Source of the DNA: a virus
Taxonomy: Duplodnaviria > Heunggongvirae > Uroviricota > Caudoviricetes
IMG/VR virus record: IMGVR_UViG_2563366911_000006
Direction: 5' to 3' (one strand)
DNA: 16,278 nt
Shown here: one piece after another, positions 2,504-16,278 of the stretch
How positions within the stretch are numbered: the stretch's first letter is position 1
Layout: each line of letters starts with the position of its first letter
Made by a program: the position numbers and the translations under genes
The notes under the pieces: generated by a model
Told to the model about the DNA's origin: nothing
The model's input: only the letters and a program-made list of their open reading frames with translations
Database searches by the model: none

Positions 2504-3304
2504 ATGAAATTTCCAAAAACGCCCGTACAGGGGCAGGGCTTCGTTCGGCCTGAAAACCAGAATCTGCAAAATTTTGGTGAAATTATCCCGGTTATTTCCG
2601 GCGTTATTGGCGGGCGTGAAACCAATATTGTTAGTGCCAGAGCGTTGCATAAGGCGTTAGGTGTAGGGCGCGTTTTCCGTTCGTGGATCAAGGGGCGCAT
2701 TGAAGAATACGGCTTCACGGAAGGCGTGGATTATGAGGTTGTTGAATATTTGAGCCGACCCGATCCGGTGAGCGCAAAATCTCGCCAGCAAACAGCTCTT
2801 GAGTACATCATCACCGTGAACATGGCAAAAGAACTGGCGATGGTCGAACACACCGAACAGGGCCGTGCCGTTCGTCAGTACTTCATCAAATGCGAGGAGG
2901 AGCTACACAAGGTAGCGCCAGTGCGTTCCGCAGCGTTACGCCGGGAACTGAAAGCCCGTATCACCGTTGCCAGCTACTTTAAGCCGATGTGTGCCGCGCT
3001 GGAGGCGTACCGGGCTGAACTGGGTAAAAACACGTTCCAGCACCACTACACCACGGAAGCCAATATGCTGGCGCGTATCGTGCTGGGTGGCATGACTGCA
3101 AAACAGTGGGCACAGGCGAACGGCATTACAGGCGAACCACGCGACCACATGAGCACGTTGCAGCTTGAGCACCTTTCTTACCTTGAGCAGAGCAATATCA
3201 CGCTGATTGAGTTAGGCCTGGACTACCACCAGCGGAAAGCTGAATTAATTCGTCTTTCGCAGCGTTGGTTAGCCCGTCGCATGGAGGAAAACAGCCATGT
3301 GTAA
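2504..3304 (+). CDS. Phage antirepressor-like protein (AntA/Rha-type N-terminal domain)
   Basis: 266 aa, AGGAG Shine-Dalgarno 7 nt upstream. N-terminal segment ARALHKALGVGRVFRSWIKGRIEEYGFTEGVDYEV resembles the AntA/Rha antirepressor DNA-binding domain. C-terminal half not assigned. Confidence 0.75.
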   Translation: MKFPKTPVQGQGFVRPENQNLQNFGEIIPVISGVIGGRETNIVSARALHKALGVGRVFRSWIKGRIEEYGFTEGVDYEVVEYLSRPDPVSAKSRQQTALEYIITVNMAKELAMVEHTEQGRAVRQYFIKCEEELHKVAPVRSAALRRELKARITVASYFKPMCAALEAYRAELGKNTFQHHYTTEANMLARIVLGGMTAKQWAQANGITGEPRDHMSTLQLEHLSYLEQSNITLIELGLDYHQRKAELIRLSQRWLARRMEENSHV

Positions 3305-3976
3305 CGCTCTGACCGTTACAAAAAGAGAAAGCGCCCCGTTGCCGGAGCGCCTTTGTGAACGAATAGCCTACTGCGCCATATTGCTTACTGTCTACGAGGC
3401 AGATTATAGCGTTGTGGTCGCACAGAGTGAAGGCGCTGATCACCGTTACTACAGCACGCCAGAAATGCAGAATATTTTGCTGCAAAATGTCGTTGGTCAC
3501 GCTGTCCGGAAAGCAAAAAATTTTGCTGGTGGCGCGACTGATGCGATTTTGTCAGGTCGCAAGGTGATGATCAATCTGATGTCTAATTTCGTTCTGGATA
3601 AAACAAAGGCGACCGCAGAGGGCCACCAGTGGGAAAGCTACACACTTGAACACATCGCCAACAATGCCAGATTTGCGGCTGGTGGGCAATGTGATCAGTG
3701 TGCTGGCTTGCTGGTGGGCTATTCCTGCTCTTTAACATTGCCATGCCGCGATGTTTTCCAGGTATGCGACCCCATTTTTGTGCGCCTGTACTCTTTAAGG
3801 AATTTCTCAAGGATAAACGCACAGGGCGCGAATCTGTCTGACTCATATTCGTACGCTATCTTTCTGCGCTGTCTTTTCCGTGCCGGTGATGGTGTATTGG
3901 TCGATTCTTTGTTGGTCATTCTGTGTACCTGTAAAGCAATGCGCCGGAGTTCCTCACACCACGGCGATGATAGTTA

Positions 3977-4282
3977 TTATTCTGATTCTTTGGCCTTGCG
4001 GCGCTGGAGTTCTTCACGTGCGACGGTGACGAGCTGCCCGATCTCCTCGACAGCTTTGACTCCGATTTTTTCCACCTGCGCCAGTGCATTGAGCGAAGAA
4101 ACCAGGGGATTTTCTCCGCTTCCTTCTGCCTGGCGGCGGGCGATCTCACCACGCATGGCGGTTACTATGAATCCGGCGTTGCTTTCGCCGTCCAGTTTTA
4201 CGGATTCCATGCCTTCAAAAGCATCATGTGGGATACGAATTGAAATCTGTTTTGATTTGTCGTTGATAGTGTTTTTTGCCAT
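3977..4282 (-). CDS. Putative ribbon-helix-helix DNA-binding regulator
   Basis: 101 aa from ATG at 4282 (minus strand) with AGGAGA Shine-Dalgarno. N-terminus KQISIRIPHDAFEGMESVKL...FIVTAMRGEIARRQ fits a beta-strand/helix/helix RHH fold. Divergent from the rightward operon. The opposite-strand frame here reads as Ser/Arg-rich junk. Confidence 0.7.
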   Translation of the reverse strand: MAKNTINDKSKQISIRIPHDAFEGMESVKLDGESNAGFIVTAMRGEIARRQAEGSGENPLVSSLNALAQVEKIGVKAVEEIGQLVTVAREELQRRKAKESE

Positions 4283-4469
4283 GTGCATTCTCCTAAACAA
4301 AAGATGTGATTCAGTATACACAAAAAAGAATCACAAAAAATACTTGACCTGTGATTCAGTTAAATTTAATTTAAATCACACCTCAGTAAGAGGATATAAA
4401 CGACAACGCCCCGAACTGTTTGCGGCAGTAGCGGGGCGTCTAACCAAACCGTTAAATGAGGTAACGATT
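4283..4469. promoter_or_regulatory. Divergent control region with operator-like repeats and a leader hairpin
   Basis: Two 11-bp direct repeats TGTGATTCAGT (4305-4315, 4350-4360), each with an inverted partner GAATCACA/AATCACA (4328-4335, 4374-4380). Candidate rightward promoter TTGACC (4345-4350) with a TAATTT-type -10. Candidate leftward -10 TATACT (minus strand, 4313-4318). GC hairpin ACGCCCCG-N18-CGGGGCGT (4406-4439) in the operon leader. Confidence 0.5.
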
Positions 4470-4835
4470 ATGGCTGGGGCACAGCATACCCAAACTCACC
4501 CTAAATTTATATACACCTTCCTTGCGGTGCACCGTGATTGCATGGCTGACGGTAAAAACACTGTTCATGTAGCCGCCGATACGCTGGTTGATGCCTGCGA
4601 GATGCTCAATGACATGGGCTATATCTCGGCAACATGGAAAGGGCGCGAAGAAAACACGTTGTTTATTCAGAAATGCGAAAACAATTTTATCTGGCGTTTT
4701 ATCGCCCTGAGTACGGCACAACCGCGCGTGATTCACATCGAGGCCACCAGCGAACAGGAAGCACGCCAGCAATCTCCTGATGGCTGCGTGATGGTATTCG
4801 CTGCCCGTATTCGCCAGGAGGTGGAGCATGTGTAA
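4470..4835 (+). CDS. Hypothetical satellite-operon protein (possibly Icd-like)
   Basis: 121 aa, GAGGT Shine-Dalgarno 8 nt upstream of ATG 4470. It is the only protein-like part of the 512-aa ORF-track frame. Family assignment is from memory and uncertain. Confidence 0.65.
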   Translation: MAGAQHTQTHPKFIYTFLAVHRDCMADGKNTVHVAADTLVDACEMLNDMGYISATWKGREENTLFIQKCENNFIWRFIALSTAQPRVIHIEATSEQEARQQSPDGCVMVFAARIRQEVEHV

Positions 4836-8310: not shown

Positions 8311-8356
8311 CTGATGAATCCCCTAATGATTTTGGTAAAAATCATTAAGTTAAGGT

Positions 8357-8425
8357 GGATACACATCTTGTCATATGATCAAATGGTTTCGCGAAAAATC
8401 AATAATCAGACAACAAGATGTGCGA
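8357..8425 (-). ncRNA. IS10 RNA-OUT antisense RNA (position inferred)
   Basis: Placed by offset from the IS10 outside end using textbook IS10 organisation. Imperfect inverted repeat CATCTTGTC (8364-8372) / GACAACAAGATG (8409-8420) fits the RNA-OUT stem overlapping the transposase start. Confidence 0.45.
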
Positions 8426-9626
8426 ACTCGATATTTTACACGACTCTCTTTACCAATTCTGCCCCGAATTACACTTAAAACGACTCAACAGCTTAACGTT
8501 GGCTTGCCACGCATTACTTGACTGTAAAACTCTCACTCTTACCGAACTTGGCCGTAACCTGCCAACCAAAGCGAGAACAAAACATAACATCAAACGAATC
8601 GACCGATTGTTAGGTAATCGTCACCTCCACAAAGAGCGACTCGCTGTATACCGTTGGCATGCTAGCTTTATCTGTTCGGGCAATACGATGCCCATTGTAC
8701 TTGTTGACTGGTCTGATATTCGTGAGCAAAAACGACTTATGGTATTGCGAGCTTCAGTCGCACTACACGGTCGTTCTGTTACTCTTTATGAGAAAGCGTT
8801 CCCGCTTTCAGAGCAATGTTCAAAGAAAGCTCATGACCAATTTCTAGCCGACCTTGCGAGCATTCTACCGAGTAACACCACACCGCTCATTGTCAGTGAT
8901 GCTGGCTTTAAAGTGCCATGGTATAAATCCGTTGAGAAGCTGGGTTGGTACTGGTTAAGTCGAGTAAGAGGAAAAGTACAATATGCAGACCTAGGAGCGG
9001 AAAACTGGAAACCTATCAGCAACTTACATGATATGTCATCTAGTCACTCAAAGACTTTAGGCTATAAGAGGCTGACTAAAAGCAATCCAATCTCATGCCA
9101 AATTCTATTGTATAAATCTCGCTCTAAAGGCCGAAAAAATCAGCGCTCGACACGGACTCATTGTCACCACCCGTCACCTAAAATCTACTCAGCGTCGGCA
9201 AAGGAGCCATGGATTCTAGCAACTAACTTACCTGTTGAAATTCGAACACCCAAACAACTTGTTAATATCTATTCGAAGCGAATGCAGATTGAAGAAACCT
9301 TCCGAGACTTGAAAAGTCCTGCCTACGGACTAGGCCTACGCCATAGCCGAACGAGCAGCTCAGAGCGTTTTGATATCATGCTGCTAATCGCCCTGATGCT
9401 TCAACTAACATGTTGGCTTGCGGGCGTTCATGCTCAGAAACAAGGTTGGGACAAGCACTTCCAGGCTAACACAGTCAGAAATCGAAACGTACTCTCAACA
9501 GTTCGCTTAGGCATGGAAGTTTTGCGGCATTCTGGCTACACAATAACAAGGGAAGACTCACTCGTGGCTGCAACCCTGCTTACTCAAAATCTATTCACAC
9601 ATGGTTACGTTTTGGGGAAATTATGA
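8418..9626 (+). CDS. IS10 transposase
   Basis: 402-aa ORF MCELDILHDSLYQFCPELHLKRLNSLTLACHALLDCKTLTLTELGRNLPTKARTKHNIKRIDRLLGN... recognised as the IS10/Tn10 transposase. Full length, intact frame. Confidence 0.95.
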   Translation: MCELDILHDSLYQFCPELHLKRLNSLTLACHALLDCKTLTLTELGRNLPTKARTKHNIKRIDRLLGNRHLHKERLAVYRWHASFICSGNTMPIVLVDWSDIREQKRLMVLRASVALHGRSVTLYEKAFPLSEQCSKKAHDQFLADLASILPSNTTPLIVSDAGFKVPWYKSVEKLGWYWLSRVRGKVQYADLGAENWKPISNLHDMSSSHSKTLGYKRLTKSNPISCQILLYKSRSKGRKNQRSTRTHCHHPSPKIYSASAKEPWILATNLPVEIRTPKQLVNIYSKRMQIEETFRDLKSPAYGLGLRHSRTSSSERFDIMLLIALMLQLTCWLAGVHAQKQGWDKHFQANTVRNRNVLSTVRLGMEVLRHSGYTITREDSLVAATLLTQNLFTHGYVLGKL

Positions 9627-9639
9627 GGGGATCTCTCAG

Positions 9640-9648
9640 GGCAAAGCA
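9640..9648. repeat. IS10 target-site duplication, right copy (GGCAAAGCA)
   Basis: Identical to 8302-8310. Its last base is the A of the ATG of the next gene. Confidence 0.9.
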
Positions 9649-10178
9649 TGACTAAGCTGACCATTAACAGAAAACCAAAAGGTATTTACGGCACGCCGCA
9701 GAAAACGACGCAGGCGGCACAGGAGCAGGATAAAACCACATCGGCGCATAAAGTGATGCCCGGTAACCAGAAAGCGCAGCAGAAGCCTACAGGGGCGACA
9801 CCGTGGCGGCATATGACCAAACGCCAGCGCAAAAACCGCAGGCGCGTTAACCGCCTCACTGAGTTGTGGCCTGACTTATTCAGCCGGGAAGCACTGAAGC
9901 CGCTTAAGGTGGGGATATTCGACGACCTGATGCAGGATCTCGCCGCCAGGGGGCTGGCATTCGGGCCAGGGGCATTGCGTGCGACGCTGGCATCTTATGC
10001 GCAGTGTCCGCGCTATTACCGCGCCTTAATGGCTGGTGGGGTACGCTACGACCTGAAAGGCCAGCCGTGCGGCGAGGTGACACCACAGGAACAACAGGAC
10101 GCAGAAACGCGGCTGGTGGCGCTGAATGAGAAGCGCAAACGCCAGTGCCGGGCAGCAAAGGAGACAATAGGCGCATGA
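9648..10178 (+). CDS. ProQ/FinO-domain protein (RNA chaperone-like)
   Basis: 176 aa, GC-rich. Segment PLKVGIFDDLMQDL...LRATLASYAQCPRYYRALMAGGVRYDLKGQPCGEVTPQEQ closely parallels the conserved ProQ/FinO core (PLKIGIF..DL...R.DL.G.PCGE). IS10 lies immediately upstream. Confidence 0.72.
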   Translation: MTKLTINRKPKGIYGTPQKTTQAAQEQDKTTSAHKVMPGNQKAQQKPTGATPWRHMTKRQRKNRRRVNRLTELWPDLFSREALKPLKVGIFDDLMQDLAARGLAFGPGALRATLASYAQCPRYYRALMAGGVRYDLKGQPCGEVTPQEQQDAETRLVALNEKRKRQCRAAKETIGA

Positions 10179-14289: not shown

Positions 14290-16278
14290 GTGTTCCTAAT
14301 ATCTGACCTTAGCGACTTGCGTGCACTTTCGGAATCCGCAGAGCTAGAGTTCAAGCTAGCTCAAGGGAAAGACGGACAAGGTAAATTACCTGATGATTTC
14401 TGGCCAACCTATAGTGCTATGGCAAACTGCCGTGGTGGGTATGTGGTTTTAGGTATTAGAGAGAAAAAAGGGGAATTTTCCGTTGCGGGTATCTCAGATA
14501 TAAATACCGTTAAAAAGCAGCTTTTCGACCTCGTGAGCAACAAGAAAAAAGTTAACGTTAATCTTCTTACCAATAACTCTGTCCAAACAGTATCCTTACA
14601 GGGAAAGGATATTCTTGTCATTGAAATACCAATCGCACGACGAGAACAGAAACCTGTTTATTTGAATAATCAACCCATGTCAGAAACATGGTTTCGTATG
14701 CACGACGGTGATCATCGTTGTTCAGAAGAACAAGTTCGTCGCATGATGGCCGAACAGGTTGAAGAAAGCCGCGACAACCGTATCGTACAAAACTTCGACA
14801 TGAACGATATTAACCTAGAAAGCTTGTTGGCTTACAGAAATCTACTATCTGCTTCAAACCCGACACATCCAGCTCTCGAACTAGATAACTTTGCTTTCCT
14901 ACGAAGTATTGGGGGATATAGAAAAGACCGGCAAACAGGTTTGGAAGGCATGACCTTAGCTGGCATTCTCATGTTTGGAACATGGGAAGCGATACAAGAT
15001 GTAGCCCCAAATTATTTTGTGGATTACCAAGAACGCCCTGAAGCAAGAACTGAAAGAAGATGGGTAGATAGACTATGTCCCGATGGGACTTGGTCAGGTA
15101 ACGTGTTTGACTTTTACAGACGAACCTATCGAAAACTAATTGCTGACTTAAAAGTCCCTTTTGAGCTTAAAGAAGGTATCCGACAGGACGATACTCAGAT
15201 ACACACAGCATTGCGTGAAGCGCTGGTAAATACCTTAGTTCATGCCGATTATACTGGACGAATCTCCATCATGGTTGTGAAACGACCAGATCTATTTGGC
15301 TTCCGTAATCCAGGTTTGATGCGCGTGCCACCAGAACAAGCAATCAAAGGATATGAAAGCGATTGTCGAAACCGACTGATGCATCAAATGTTTTTAATTA
15401 TTGGTGCTGGTGAACGATCAGGCTCAGGGATCCCTAAAATATTTAGTGGCTGGAAATGGGCTAACTGGCGTATGCCAAGGCTATATGAAAAAACAGAACC
15501 AGAACAAACACTTTTGGAGCTATCTATTGGCAACCTCGTATCAGAAGAAATTGCCAATCTTCTCCATACAAAATTTGGCGACAAAGTAGACCATCTCAGT
15601 GAGCTTGAGCGCAGTATTGTTATAACTGCAGCCGTAGAAAAGTGGATTGACCATGAACGGGCTTGTCAACTAACTAGCCTTCACTCTCGTGAGGTAACTT
15701 TAGCCTTACCCCGCCTTGTAAGCGGCGGATTCTTAGTCCCTCATGGTGAGAAGAGGAATAAATCATATACATTACCGGGGCAGGATCTTCCATCTCCAGA
15801 GGAAGTTTTTGGTGTAAATCCGTTATCAACAGACAACTCATTCGCAAACGAAGCTCAAATCATCACGGATAGCGATAATTTGATCACGGATAACGAAGAA
15901 TTGATCACGGATAACGAAAAAGAACGAGATGCTTTAGGTCGTTTTATAACCGAGAAACTACCTTTTCCTTATGTGGATAACCTTGAGTGCCTTTCACCAA
16001 CCTTAAGGCAACGGTTAGAAGACATATCTGCATTAGCCAGAGAAAAGAAACGACTTTCCAACGAAACCATGGACGAAATCATACTTAAGCTTTGCTCAGG
16101 CCATTATATGCCGCTTAGTGTTATTGCAAAGTTAATGGCCCGAACACCACAGAACCTACGAGAAAAACAGCTCGTTCCATTAGTAAGATCCGGAAAAATA
16201 AGACTGGCATTTCCTCATGCGAGAAGACACAAACGACAGGGATATATTTCTTGTGAACAAGTACAAGTTAACAACTAA
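14290..16278 (+). CDS. Schlafen/AlbA_2-domain protein with GHKL-like ATPase-type region (COG2865-like) and extended C-terminus
   Basis: 662 aa, GTG start with GGAGG upstream. N-terminal SESAELEFK signature; LAGILMFG segment; LREALVNTLVHADY...FRNPG...ERSGSGIPKIF matching the HATPase_c_4-like core of COG2865 proteins; C-terminal HTH-like segments. Family call from memory of motifs. Ends exactly at the window end. Confidence 0.8.
   Translation: MFLISDLSDLRALSESAELEFKLAQGKDGQGKLPDDFWPTYSAMANCRGGYVVLGIREKKGEFSVAGISDINTVKKQLFDLVSNKKKVNVNLLTNNSVQTVSLQGKDILVIEIPIARREQKPVYLNNQPMSETWFRMHDGDHRCSEEQVRRMMAEQVEESRDNRIVQNFDMNDINLESLLAYRNLLSASNPTHPALELDNFAFLRSIGGYRKDRQTGLEGMTLAGILMFGTWEAIQDVAPNYFVDYQERPEARTERRWVDRLCPDGTWSGNVFDFYRRTYRKLIADLKVPFELKEGIRQDDTQIHTALREALVNTLVHADYTGRISIMVVKRPDLFGFRNPGLMRVPPEQAIKGYESDCRNRLMHQMFLIIGAGERSGSGIPKIFSGWKWANWRMPRLYEKTEPEQTLLELSIGNLVSEEIANLLHTKFGDKVDHLSELERSIVITAAVEKWIDHERACQLTSLHSREVTLALPRLVSGGFLVPHGEKRNKSYTLPGQDLPSPEEVFGVNPLSTDNSFANEAQIITDSDNLITDNEELITDNEKERDALGRFITEKLPFPYVDNLECLSPTLRQRLEDISALAREKKRLSNETMDEIILKLCSGHYMPLSVIAKLMARTPQNLREKQLVPLVRSGKIRLAFPHARRHKRQGYISCEQVQVNN

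Follow-up and report, generated by a model that had tools for sequence, protein, structure and literature searches.

Record IMGVR_UViG_2563366911_000006 of the IMG/VR collection (Duplodnaviria; Heunggongvirae; Uroviricota; Caudoviricetes) is a stretch of 16,278 nucleotides, referred to as the window; all positions are counted from its first letter. The window is an Escherichia coli island with the gene order integrase, hypothetical gene, AlpA, antA, control zone, two leftward genes for a 66-amino-acid protein and a ribbon-helix-helix (RHH) protein, an icd-like gene, small coupled open reading frames (ORFs), DUF4222 and a D5-type primase. Pfam matches to an integrase, AlpA, DUF4222 and D5_N/DUF5906/Pox_D5 lie in one orientation, the layout of Gram-negative phage-inducible chromosomal islands (PICIs), and on this gene content the window is classified as a PICI of the P4-related kind. 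The interval 3297-3718, downstream of antA, is the 5' part of a long plus-strand frame at 3297-4835. This frame passes antisense through the RHH gene (3977-4282, minus strand) and across the divergent promoter region. A large set of related islands maintains the frame without stops, and its 5' part shows no amino-acid constraint. The genes and the frame are the following.

1-1254: integrase gene.
Within 2113-2424: AlpA gene.
2504-3304, plus strand: antA, of the AntA/AntB antirepressor family (Pfam AntA, E 1.5e-22; PGAP annotation in the related loci L001-L003).
3283-3304, plus strand: coupling junction, read from the sequence, with the Shine-Dalgarno sequence GGAGG (3283-3287), a 9-nt spacer and ATGTGTAA, which holds the start codon 3297 and the antA stop TAA (3302-3304).
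3297-4835, plus strand: read-through frame of 512 codons ending in an Icd-like (Kil-like) domain.
3719-3919, minus strand: gene of a basic 66-amino-acid protein, second gene of the leftward repressor operon (phrog_21027, E 6e-31, end to end).
3977-4282, minus strand: gene of an RHH protein of the YlcI/YnfO family (NF041551, E 5e-18; phrog_6522, E 5.5e-57).
4470-4835, plus strand: Icd-like (Kil-like) gene of 121 amino acids, occupying the 3' end of the long frame as a nested gene; in the second ATGTGTAA its stop overlaps the ATG of the next gene (NF033153, E 5e-23).

Start and extent of the frame

The window contains two copies of the octamer ATGTGTAA and no more, at 3297-3304 and 4828-4835. 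A previous inspection of the letters without database searches, here called the sequence-only reading, had described the overlap of ATG 3297 with the antirepressor stop and its repetition at 4828, as well as a 1.5-kb open frame antisense through the RHH gene and the promoter region. Both descriptions proved accurate, the frame comprising 512 codons. The identical antA-stop/start junction is present in all antA-type variants of the island, and in most variants the frame starts between -8 and +15 nt from the stop of the preceding gene. The position of ATG 3297 would suit translational coupling with the rightward gene before it. The start of the icd-like gene, ATG 4470, shares frame and stop with ATG 3297.

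Conservation of the open frame

The probability of an open frame by chance was estimated by dinucleotide shuffles for the non-coding parts and by synonymous codon resampling for the two minus-strand genes, and the probabilities were multiplied. Shuffling yielded P(no stop) values of 0.0015 for 3305-3718, 0.40 for 3920-3976 and 0.019 for 4283-4460; the other two plus-strand frames contain 5-9, 0-3 and 6-7 stops, respectively, in these parts. Resampling of the minus-strand genes yielded 0.20 and 0.26, and the combined probability for the window is about 6e-7. Taken alone, openness opposite the two minus-strand genes is only slightly improbable; the case depends mainly on the non-coding parts and a census of related islands.

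Close relatives are open to the Icd stop. The frame comprises 510 codons in JNU, which carries a 6-bp deletion, and 528 codons in both E189 and E21845, despite a 45-bp insertion and a different promoter region. The census sample was picked by the 51-residue Icd domain alone, which avoided selection on the frame, and covered 80 IMG/VR loci with 48 distinct variants. The Icd frame is open over 76-602 codons upstream of the domain (median 315) and over at least 150 codons in 46 of the 48 variants; up to about 73 of these codons may belong to icd itself. The other two frames, used as controls, have at most 36 open codons and 0.058 stops per codon, or about 18 stops over the same span. Not a single stop was found in approximately 7,400 distinct in-frame windows of eight codons across the 48 variants. 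The same openness census gave 30/37 for a Klebsiella-type set and 43/76 for a P4-like set with short Icd. Klebsiella pneumoniae ATCC 13883 (L016) and E. ruysiae (L014) have 348 and 344 open codons, respectively.

The variants are mosaics of many different cassettes, and the middle of the frame is swapped wholesale between them. One locus (L066) carries two repressor cassettes in tandem and has 653 open codons. Among variants of at least 90% identity, gaps that are not multiples of three are compensated within about 35 nt or adjoin the end of an aligned block. The exception is L094, in which a 1-nt deletion at about 3273 of that locus, relative to the 99% identical L095, breaks the long frame; this is likely a recent inactivation. 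A raw count of gap lengths between variants (408 of 504 gaps are not multiples of three) was discarded as uninformative, because low-identity alignments scatter small gaps. In some islands (L005, L064, L080, L084, L093) a deletion has fused an AntA/Bro-N N-terminus in frame to the long frame, which stayed open across the deletion. PGAP calls these fusions BRO-N pseudogenes.

In view of the chance probability of about 6e-7 and of the census, the open frame is not an accident; it is almost certainly maintained by selection. The sequence-only reading had held that a frame on such an antisense course cannot be one real gene. This objection is removed by the open frames of 510, 528 and 528 codons to the Icd stop in the relatives, by the dozens of mosaic variants and by the precedent of eta in phage P4.

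Coding character and constraint of 3297-3718

Constraint was assessed among close relatives of at least 92% identity. The variable sites of 3305-3597 are spread 12/17/16 over the three codon positions, with 14 synonymous and 31 non-synonymous changes. In the same islands, antA has 11/11/43 variable sites (44 synonymous, 25 non-synonymous) and icd 8/6/27. The pN/pS ratio is 0.70-0.79 in the frame of 3297 and alike in all six frames; antA, the Icd-like gene and the RHH gene yielded 0.23, 0.21 and 0.14, respectively, in their own frames. The first 227 residues of the long frame have no family match in Pfam, PHROG or NCBIfam, and outside the C-terminal Icd-like domain the frame matched no family in any library searched. 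The interval 3297-3718 has no amino-acid constraint in any frame and is for this reason not a conventional protein gene, as the sequence-only reading had supposed. The same source had described the early codons as protein-like. Indeed, the first 140 or so codons have a gene-like codon composition, with a score of +0.143 per codon versus at most -0.027 in all out-of-frame windows and 0.138-0.26 in real genes. By its own standard, relatives with the same open frame and a conserved protein sequence through 4835 would have counted against it: the frame is present and open through the Icd stop, whereas the protein sequence is not conserved.

Embedded minus-strand genes and codon phase

The sequence-only reading had seen no credible complete gene in the interval and had regarded the minus-strand ORFs 3719-3919 and 3583-3846 as unconvincing. 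The first of these is the gene of the 66-amino-acid protein. It belongs to a recognised family, matching phrog_21027 over the whole length, and is a PGAP coding sequence (WP_024193730.1) in every close E. coli relative inspected. The family has the core RFAPCAF-LEKFLKE, and its third codon positions are twice as variable as the first and second positions; among close relatives the gene is under weak constraint. Doubt was justified for ORF 3583-3846, which lies in another phase, overlaps the real 66-amino-acid ORF and is a shadow ORF. The RHH protein is named YlcI/YnfO by PGAP and is the likely repressor of the island. Searches of PADLOC and of PDB sequences gave nothing informative on either protein.

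In more than 120 distinct variants, all profile-supported minus-strand ORF families lie in one phase relative to the long frame. These are YlcI/YnfO RHH proteins, Arc-like RHH proteins (phrog_228) and phrog_21027; several unclassified small ORFs share the phase. In this arrangement the wobble positions of both strands coincide, and the baseline stop density is the lowest (0.030 versus 0.050-0.052). The least variable position of the overlap region is the second position of the minus-strand gene (3/12/37 read in the plus frame).

Shadow ORFs likewise lie opposite real genes, in the antisense phase with the fewest default stops. However, such ORFs break off at the boundaries of the gene and lack conservation across unrelated genes or intergenic DNA, whereas in more than 100 variants the frame found here continues through spacers and terminators as well as an A+T-rich promoter region.

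The Icd-like gene and comparison with P4 eta and kil

A score of 80.9 bits against NF033153 (cut-off 25) assigns 4470-4835 to the Icd-like host cell division inhibitor family. PGAP calls of the gene are inconsistent: it appears with 121 amino acids (L002, L003), as an "Icd-like protein" of 214-258 amino acids, or as a pseudogene "missing N-terminus". With 121 amino acids the protein is about twice the usual length of approximately 62 and has two partial domain matches. Close to its N-terminus, the residues HPKFIYTFLAVHR are similar to those with which the domain and P4 Kil begin. The sequence looks like the result of an internal insertion or a partial duplication.

Eta of phage P4 is a frame of 214 codons (L017, 8812-8168) behind the AlpA homologue vis, and its last 65 codons are kil. 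The NF033153 profile matches residues 161-208 of P4 eta (E 1.4e-20) and residues 464-507 of the window frame (E 1.6e-21). P4 eta has been described as containing an internal constitutive promoter and the CI RNA, with Kil as a truncated version; its translation is coupled to that of the alpA homologue, and translating it averts termination, which allows the upstream late promoter to read through (PMC10111431, with reference to Forti et al. 1999, J Bacteriol 181:5225).

Both systems have a long frame after the alpA/vis homologue that starts at or overlaps the end of the preceding gene. Both frames span the immunity region and an internal early promoter, in the window represented by the RHH operon, the operator-like repeats and the divergent promoter region. 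At the 3' end of both frames lies a small in-frame Icd-like/Kil gene with a start codon of its own. They differ in the type of immunity. In P4 this is a CI RNA on the same strand, in the region of the Pfam family Phage_ASH, while the window has a leftward operon of RHH and 66-amino-acid genes, antisense and in one phase. Phage_ASH matched P4 eta with E 4.5e-23 and had no match in the window frame. In addition, the window frame is longer (512 versus 214 codons), and antA lies between alpA and the frame. By analogy, 3297-4835 is regarded as the counterpart of P4 eta and the nested gene 4470-4835 as the counterpart of P4 kil.

Terminators, Chi sites and promoter region

The control zone comprises the following further elements.

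3328-3353, minus strand: T1, predicted intrinsic terminator, leftward, found by a scan; an 11-bp stem is followed by UUUCUCUUUUUGU to about 3318.
3525-3532, plus strand: Chi octamer GCTGGTGG, the first of three in the interval.
3608-3627, minus strand: T2, predicted intrinsic terminator of the operon of the RHH and 66-amino-acid genes, found by a scan; a 7-bp stem is followed by UUUGUUUUAU to about 3598.
3678-3685 and 3710-3717, plus strand: two Chi octamers.
4305-4335 and 4350-4380: two operator-like inverted repeats TGTGATTC-N15/17-GAATCACA, 45 bp apart.
4406-4466, plus strand: icd leader RNA, with hairpin 1 at 4406-4439 and hairpin 2 at 4450-4466; the latter carries the icd Shine-Dalgarno sequence GAGG (4458-4461) in its loop.

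On the minus strand T1 folds with a dG of -19.2 (z -5.2), versus -11.5 for its plus-strand counterpart. Of 58 variants, 37 have T1, and one compensatory change (C-G to A-U) was seen among them. The corresponding dG values of T2 are -12.3 and -5.8; no stem pair is lost in more than one of 23 distinct sequences, and the loop varies. With a G+C-rich hairpin and a U run, strand-specific and conserved, both have the features of intrinsic terminators. T2 would end the repressor operon, since it lies about 90 nt past the stop of the 66-amino-acid gene. An additional RNA element in a 125-nt minus-strand fold 3' of this gene was considered (z -3.8 in the window alone) and rejected, as the consensus fold keeps only T2.

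Rfam searches over 3100-4600, at the gathering threshold and at E <= 5, gave three matches, all with E > 1 and none inside 3297-3718. No match to C4 or isrK was found in this region at either threshold, and the one element to score was the RNA-OUT of an IS10 element elsewhere in the window. The proposal of a regulatory element or RNA in the interval was partly upheld: the stretch is regulatory in character, with two minus-strand terminators within the control zone of the island; Rfam gave no significant RNA family. A sigma-70-like match TTCACT-17-TATAAT (10/12) is located at 3431-3403 on the minus strand, about 45 nt upstream of T1. Together, the site and T1 could give a leftward RNA of about 75 nt. 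The site lies in a block that is replaced in other variants, and such matches are expected by chance (mean 1.7).

The divergent promoter region 4283-4469 is A+T-rich (G+C content 0.27-0.38). The inverted repeats TGTGATTC/GAATCACA are probably the operators of the RHH protein. The icd leader folds with a dG of -21 (z -3.2) and has compensatory changes in 8 of 13 consensus pairs over 22 variants; a conserved C/A-rich CTAACCA(C/A)(C/A)AAC separates the two hairpins. The hairpins recur at the corresponding place in L003-L090. This leader looks like a place where translation or termination of transcripts made from the internal promoter is controlled.

The Chi site at 3678 lies within the near-invariant core GGCTGGTGGGCAATG of a widely conserved segment, 3598-3718. 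The whole window contains 15 Chi sites (GCTGGTGG) in 16.3 kb versus 0.38 expected from shuffles; at the average of the E. coli genome, about 3.5 sites per 16.3 kb would occur. Related islands have a mean of 1.03 sites per kb, and P4 has none. Inside the long frame, 78 sites were counted on the gene strand and one on the other. Such enrichment may be a safeguard of linear or rolling-circle satellite DNA against RecBCD, or it may promote the exchange of modules.

Proposed mechanism

A helper phage would switch on the alpA promoter, giving rightward transcripts through alpA and antA. Ribosomes would re-initiate at the overlapping ATG 3297. Translation would then continue antisense to the repressor operon, through the 66-amino-acid and RHH genes, the divergent promoter and the icd leader hairpins. 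In this way, continuous translation could shield an otherwise untranslated antisense RNA from Rho-dependent termination, and the replication genes would consequently be expressed even with the repressor holding the internal promoter shut. Convergent transcription probably interferes with repressor expression too. The roles of T2 and T1 would be to stop transcripts of the repressor operon and to keep antisense transcription out of antA, alpA and int.

The preferred reading, given a probability of roughly 0.6 and framed on the analogy with P4, is that the eta-like frame keeps read-through transcripts from the alpA promoter translated and protected from Rho, so that the internal promoter under repressor control is bypassed. 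Selection would then act on phase and freedom from stops alone, and not on the amino acids. What the sequences show directly is the conserved frame, its freedom from amino-acid constraint, the Icd domain nested in it, the junctions placed for coupling, the fixed phase and the terminators. From these sequence features we infer the translation of the frame, the role of Rho and the read-through from the alpA promoter. A wider version is more tentative and is held at somewhat under even odds. It states that a whole clade of enterobacterial phage satellites keeps a translated, freely varying frame antisense through its own protein repressor operon and divergent promoter, that repressor cassettes of unrelated families can enter only in the one codon phase that keeps the frame open, and that read-through from the helper-activated alpA promoter would both bypass the repressor-controlled promoter by escape from Rho and shut the repressor off through convergent transcription, which would form a bistable switch.

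Several points weigh against the preferred reading. No C-rich, G-poor stretch for Rho loading is evident in the composition of the plus strand. The frame is not universal: it is short in L090 and L094, the Pectobacterium locus L015 has only 93 open codons, and in L004, of the CI-RNA type, the long frame is out of phase with icd. The variants are not fully independent samples, because modules are shared by recombination. The share of the minus-strand genes in the openness is only modestly improbable (0.20-0.26), because the embedded proteins contain little Tyr, His or Gln. Finally, the gene-like codon composition of 3297-3718 could mark the relic of a real coding sequence.

Alternative explanations

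The frame might be kept open by selection for a reason other than Rho, either an N-terminally extended Icd fusion made during induction or the silencing of the repressor by translation or transcription across its operon. This would account for the frame conservation as well as the Rho-based explanation does; the in-frame AntA/Bro-N fusions of L005, L064 and L080 and the fact that the frame always ends in the Icd domain fit it too. It is nevertheless unlikely. The N-terminal and middle parts are mosaic and unconstrained, and a common N-terminal domain is lacking, because some variants (L007, L010) start only at the T2 hairpin. Moreover, the P4 precedent, as given in PMC10111431, credits the effect to translation itself.

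A still less probable proposal takes the 512-residue product as a functional multi-domain protein and the repressor genes as true antisense overlapping genes. The codon composition of 3297-3718 is gene-like, PGAP names versions of 214-258 amino acids "Icd-like protein", and Phage_ASH is a Pfam family built on the middle of P4 eta. However, a multi-domain protein is hard to reconcile with the lack of family matches beyond the C-terminal Icd-like domain, with the 12/17/16 spread in 3305-3597 and with a middle part swapped wholesale between variants. The overlap, moreover, is least variable at the second position of the minus-strand gene (3/12/37 in the plus frame).

It is very improbable that 3297-3718 is a mere spacer for the convergent terminators and the Chi cluster, with an open frame that is a coincidence inherited by descent. 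Conserved T1 and T2, the lack of a PGAP annotation and the modules shared among many variants would suit a spacer, but the P(no stop) of 0.0015 for 3305-3718 alone and the frame-restoring gap pairs do not, and the census strongly disfavours coincidence (some 7,400 distinct in-frame windows in 48 variants without a stop, versus 0.058 stops per codon in the other frames).

Equally remote are a former gene of about 140 codons starting at 3297 that lost its stop or 3' end, for which the gene-like codon composition speaks, and a minus-strand small RNA from 3431-3403 to T1, which has in its favour the 10/12 sigma-70-like match upstream of T1. The lost 3' end, also suggested by the sequence-only reading, found no counterpart among the aligned relatives: none has an intact shorter homologue with a stop, and each protein found is either this same open frame or a broken form of it. 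Against the small RNA stand the lack of significant Rfam matches in 3100-4600, the location of the promoter-like site in a replaced block at a chance expectation of 1.7, and a consensus fold that supports T2 only.

Distribution of the island and related systems

The region is 97-100% identical to that of nine E. coli chromosomes, and parts of it are present in 1126 of 5426 genomes. The segment 3598-3718 occurs in about 1000 of these 5426 E. coli genomes and 3305-3597 in about 150. PGAP leaves the equivalent of 3305-3718 blank in the relatives and places the antA start at 2456. The phage collection contains no relatives of the interval, only short matches to the promoter region. Scanning genome contigs with the Icd protein yielded three loci. 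The antA product has a weak match to the PADLOC candidate PDC-S22.

An IS10-type element is inserted within the island at 8356-9626, with RNA-OUT at 8425-8356 (98.8 bits) and a transposase ORF of 402 amino acids at 8418-9626. A relative of 100% identity (L001) carries an IS5 instead, which cuts the primase gene. The cargo at 9648-10178 and 14290-16278 encodes a ProQ/FinO-family protein and a Schlafen/AlbA_2 + HATPase_c_4 protein running off the end of the window, respectively; the latter may be a defence gene.

Phage P1 carries an Icd-family gene beside an antirepressor gene within its immunity region, the immI operon, and icd translation is coupled to expression of the genes that follow; the window resembles P1 in this. 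In P1 the order c4-icd-ant lies on one strand under antisense-RNA control, with neither a long upstream frame nor an antisense repressor operon.

For Gram-negative PICIs, a dynamic "Bro zone" with AntA/Bro-type genes and immunity functions has been described (PMC10111431). The window shares this order in the account given there: int, alpA, a dynamic zone with AntA/Bro and immunity genes, then the replication genes. AlpA of PICIs activates its own promoter, helper phages induce alpA, and over-expression of AlpA drives island replication; the same study calls the global repressor of Gram-negative PICIs unclear (PMC6092414). Induction through the alpA promoter is common to that system and the mechanism proposed here. 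The immunity described in both papers is of the RNA type, with matches to C4/isrK, unlike the protein repressors of the window. A keyword look-up in PMC10111431 and PMC6092414 retrieved no mention of a stop-free frame across protein repressor cassettes.

Significance

A read-through frame explains the inconsistent annotation of these islands, in which the stretch is left blank and the icd-like gene appears with 121 amino acids, with 214-258 amino acids or as a pseudogene. The mechanism of P4 eta/kil, known from one phage, would then apply to an extensive group of satellites in E. coli and Klebsiella that have protein repressors. If the wider version is true, these satellites make their bistable switch out of a reading frame in which nothing but phase and lack of stops is selected. 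The frame itself would provide a clear example from nature of openness and phase being selected while the encoded amino acids are not, with a bearing on the way genome annotation treats antisense and overlapping ORFs.

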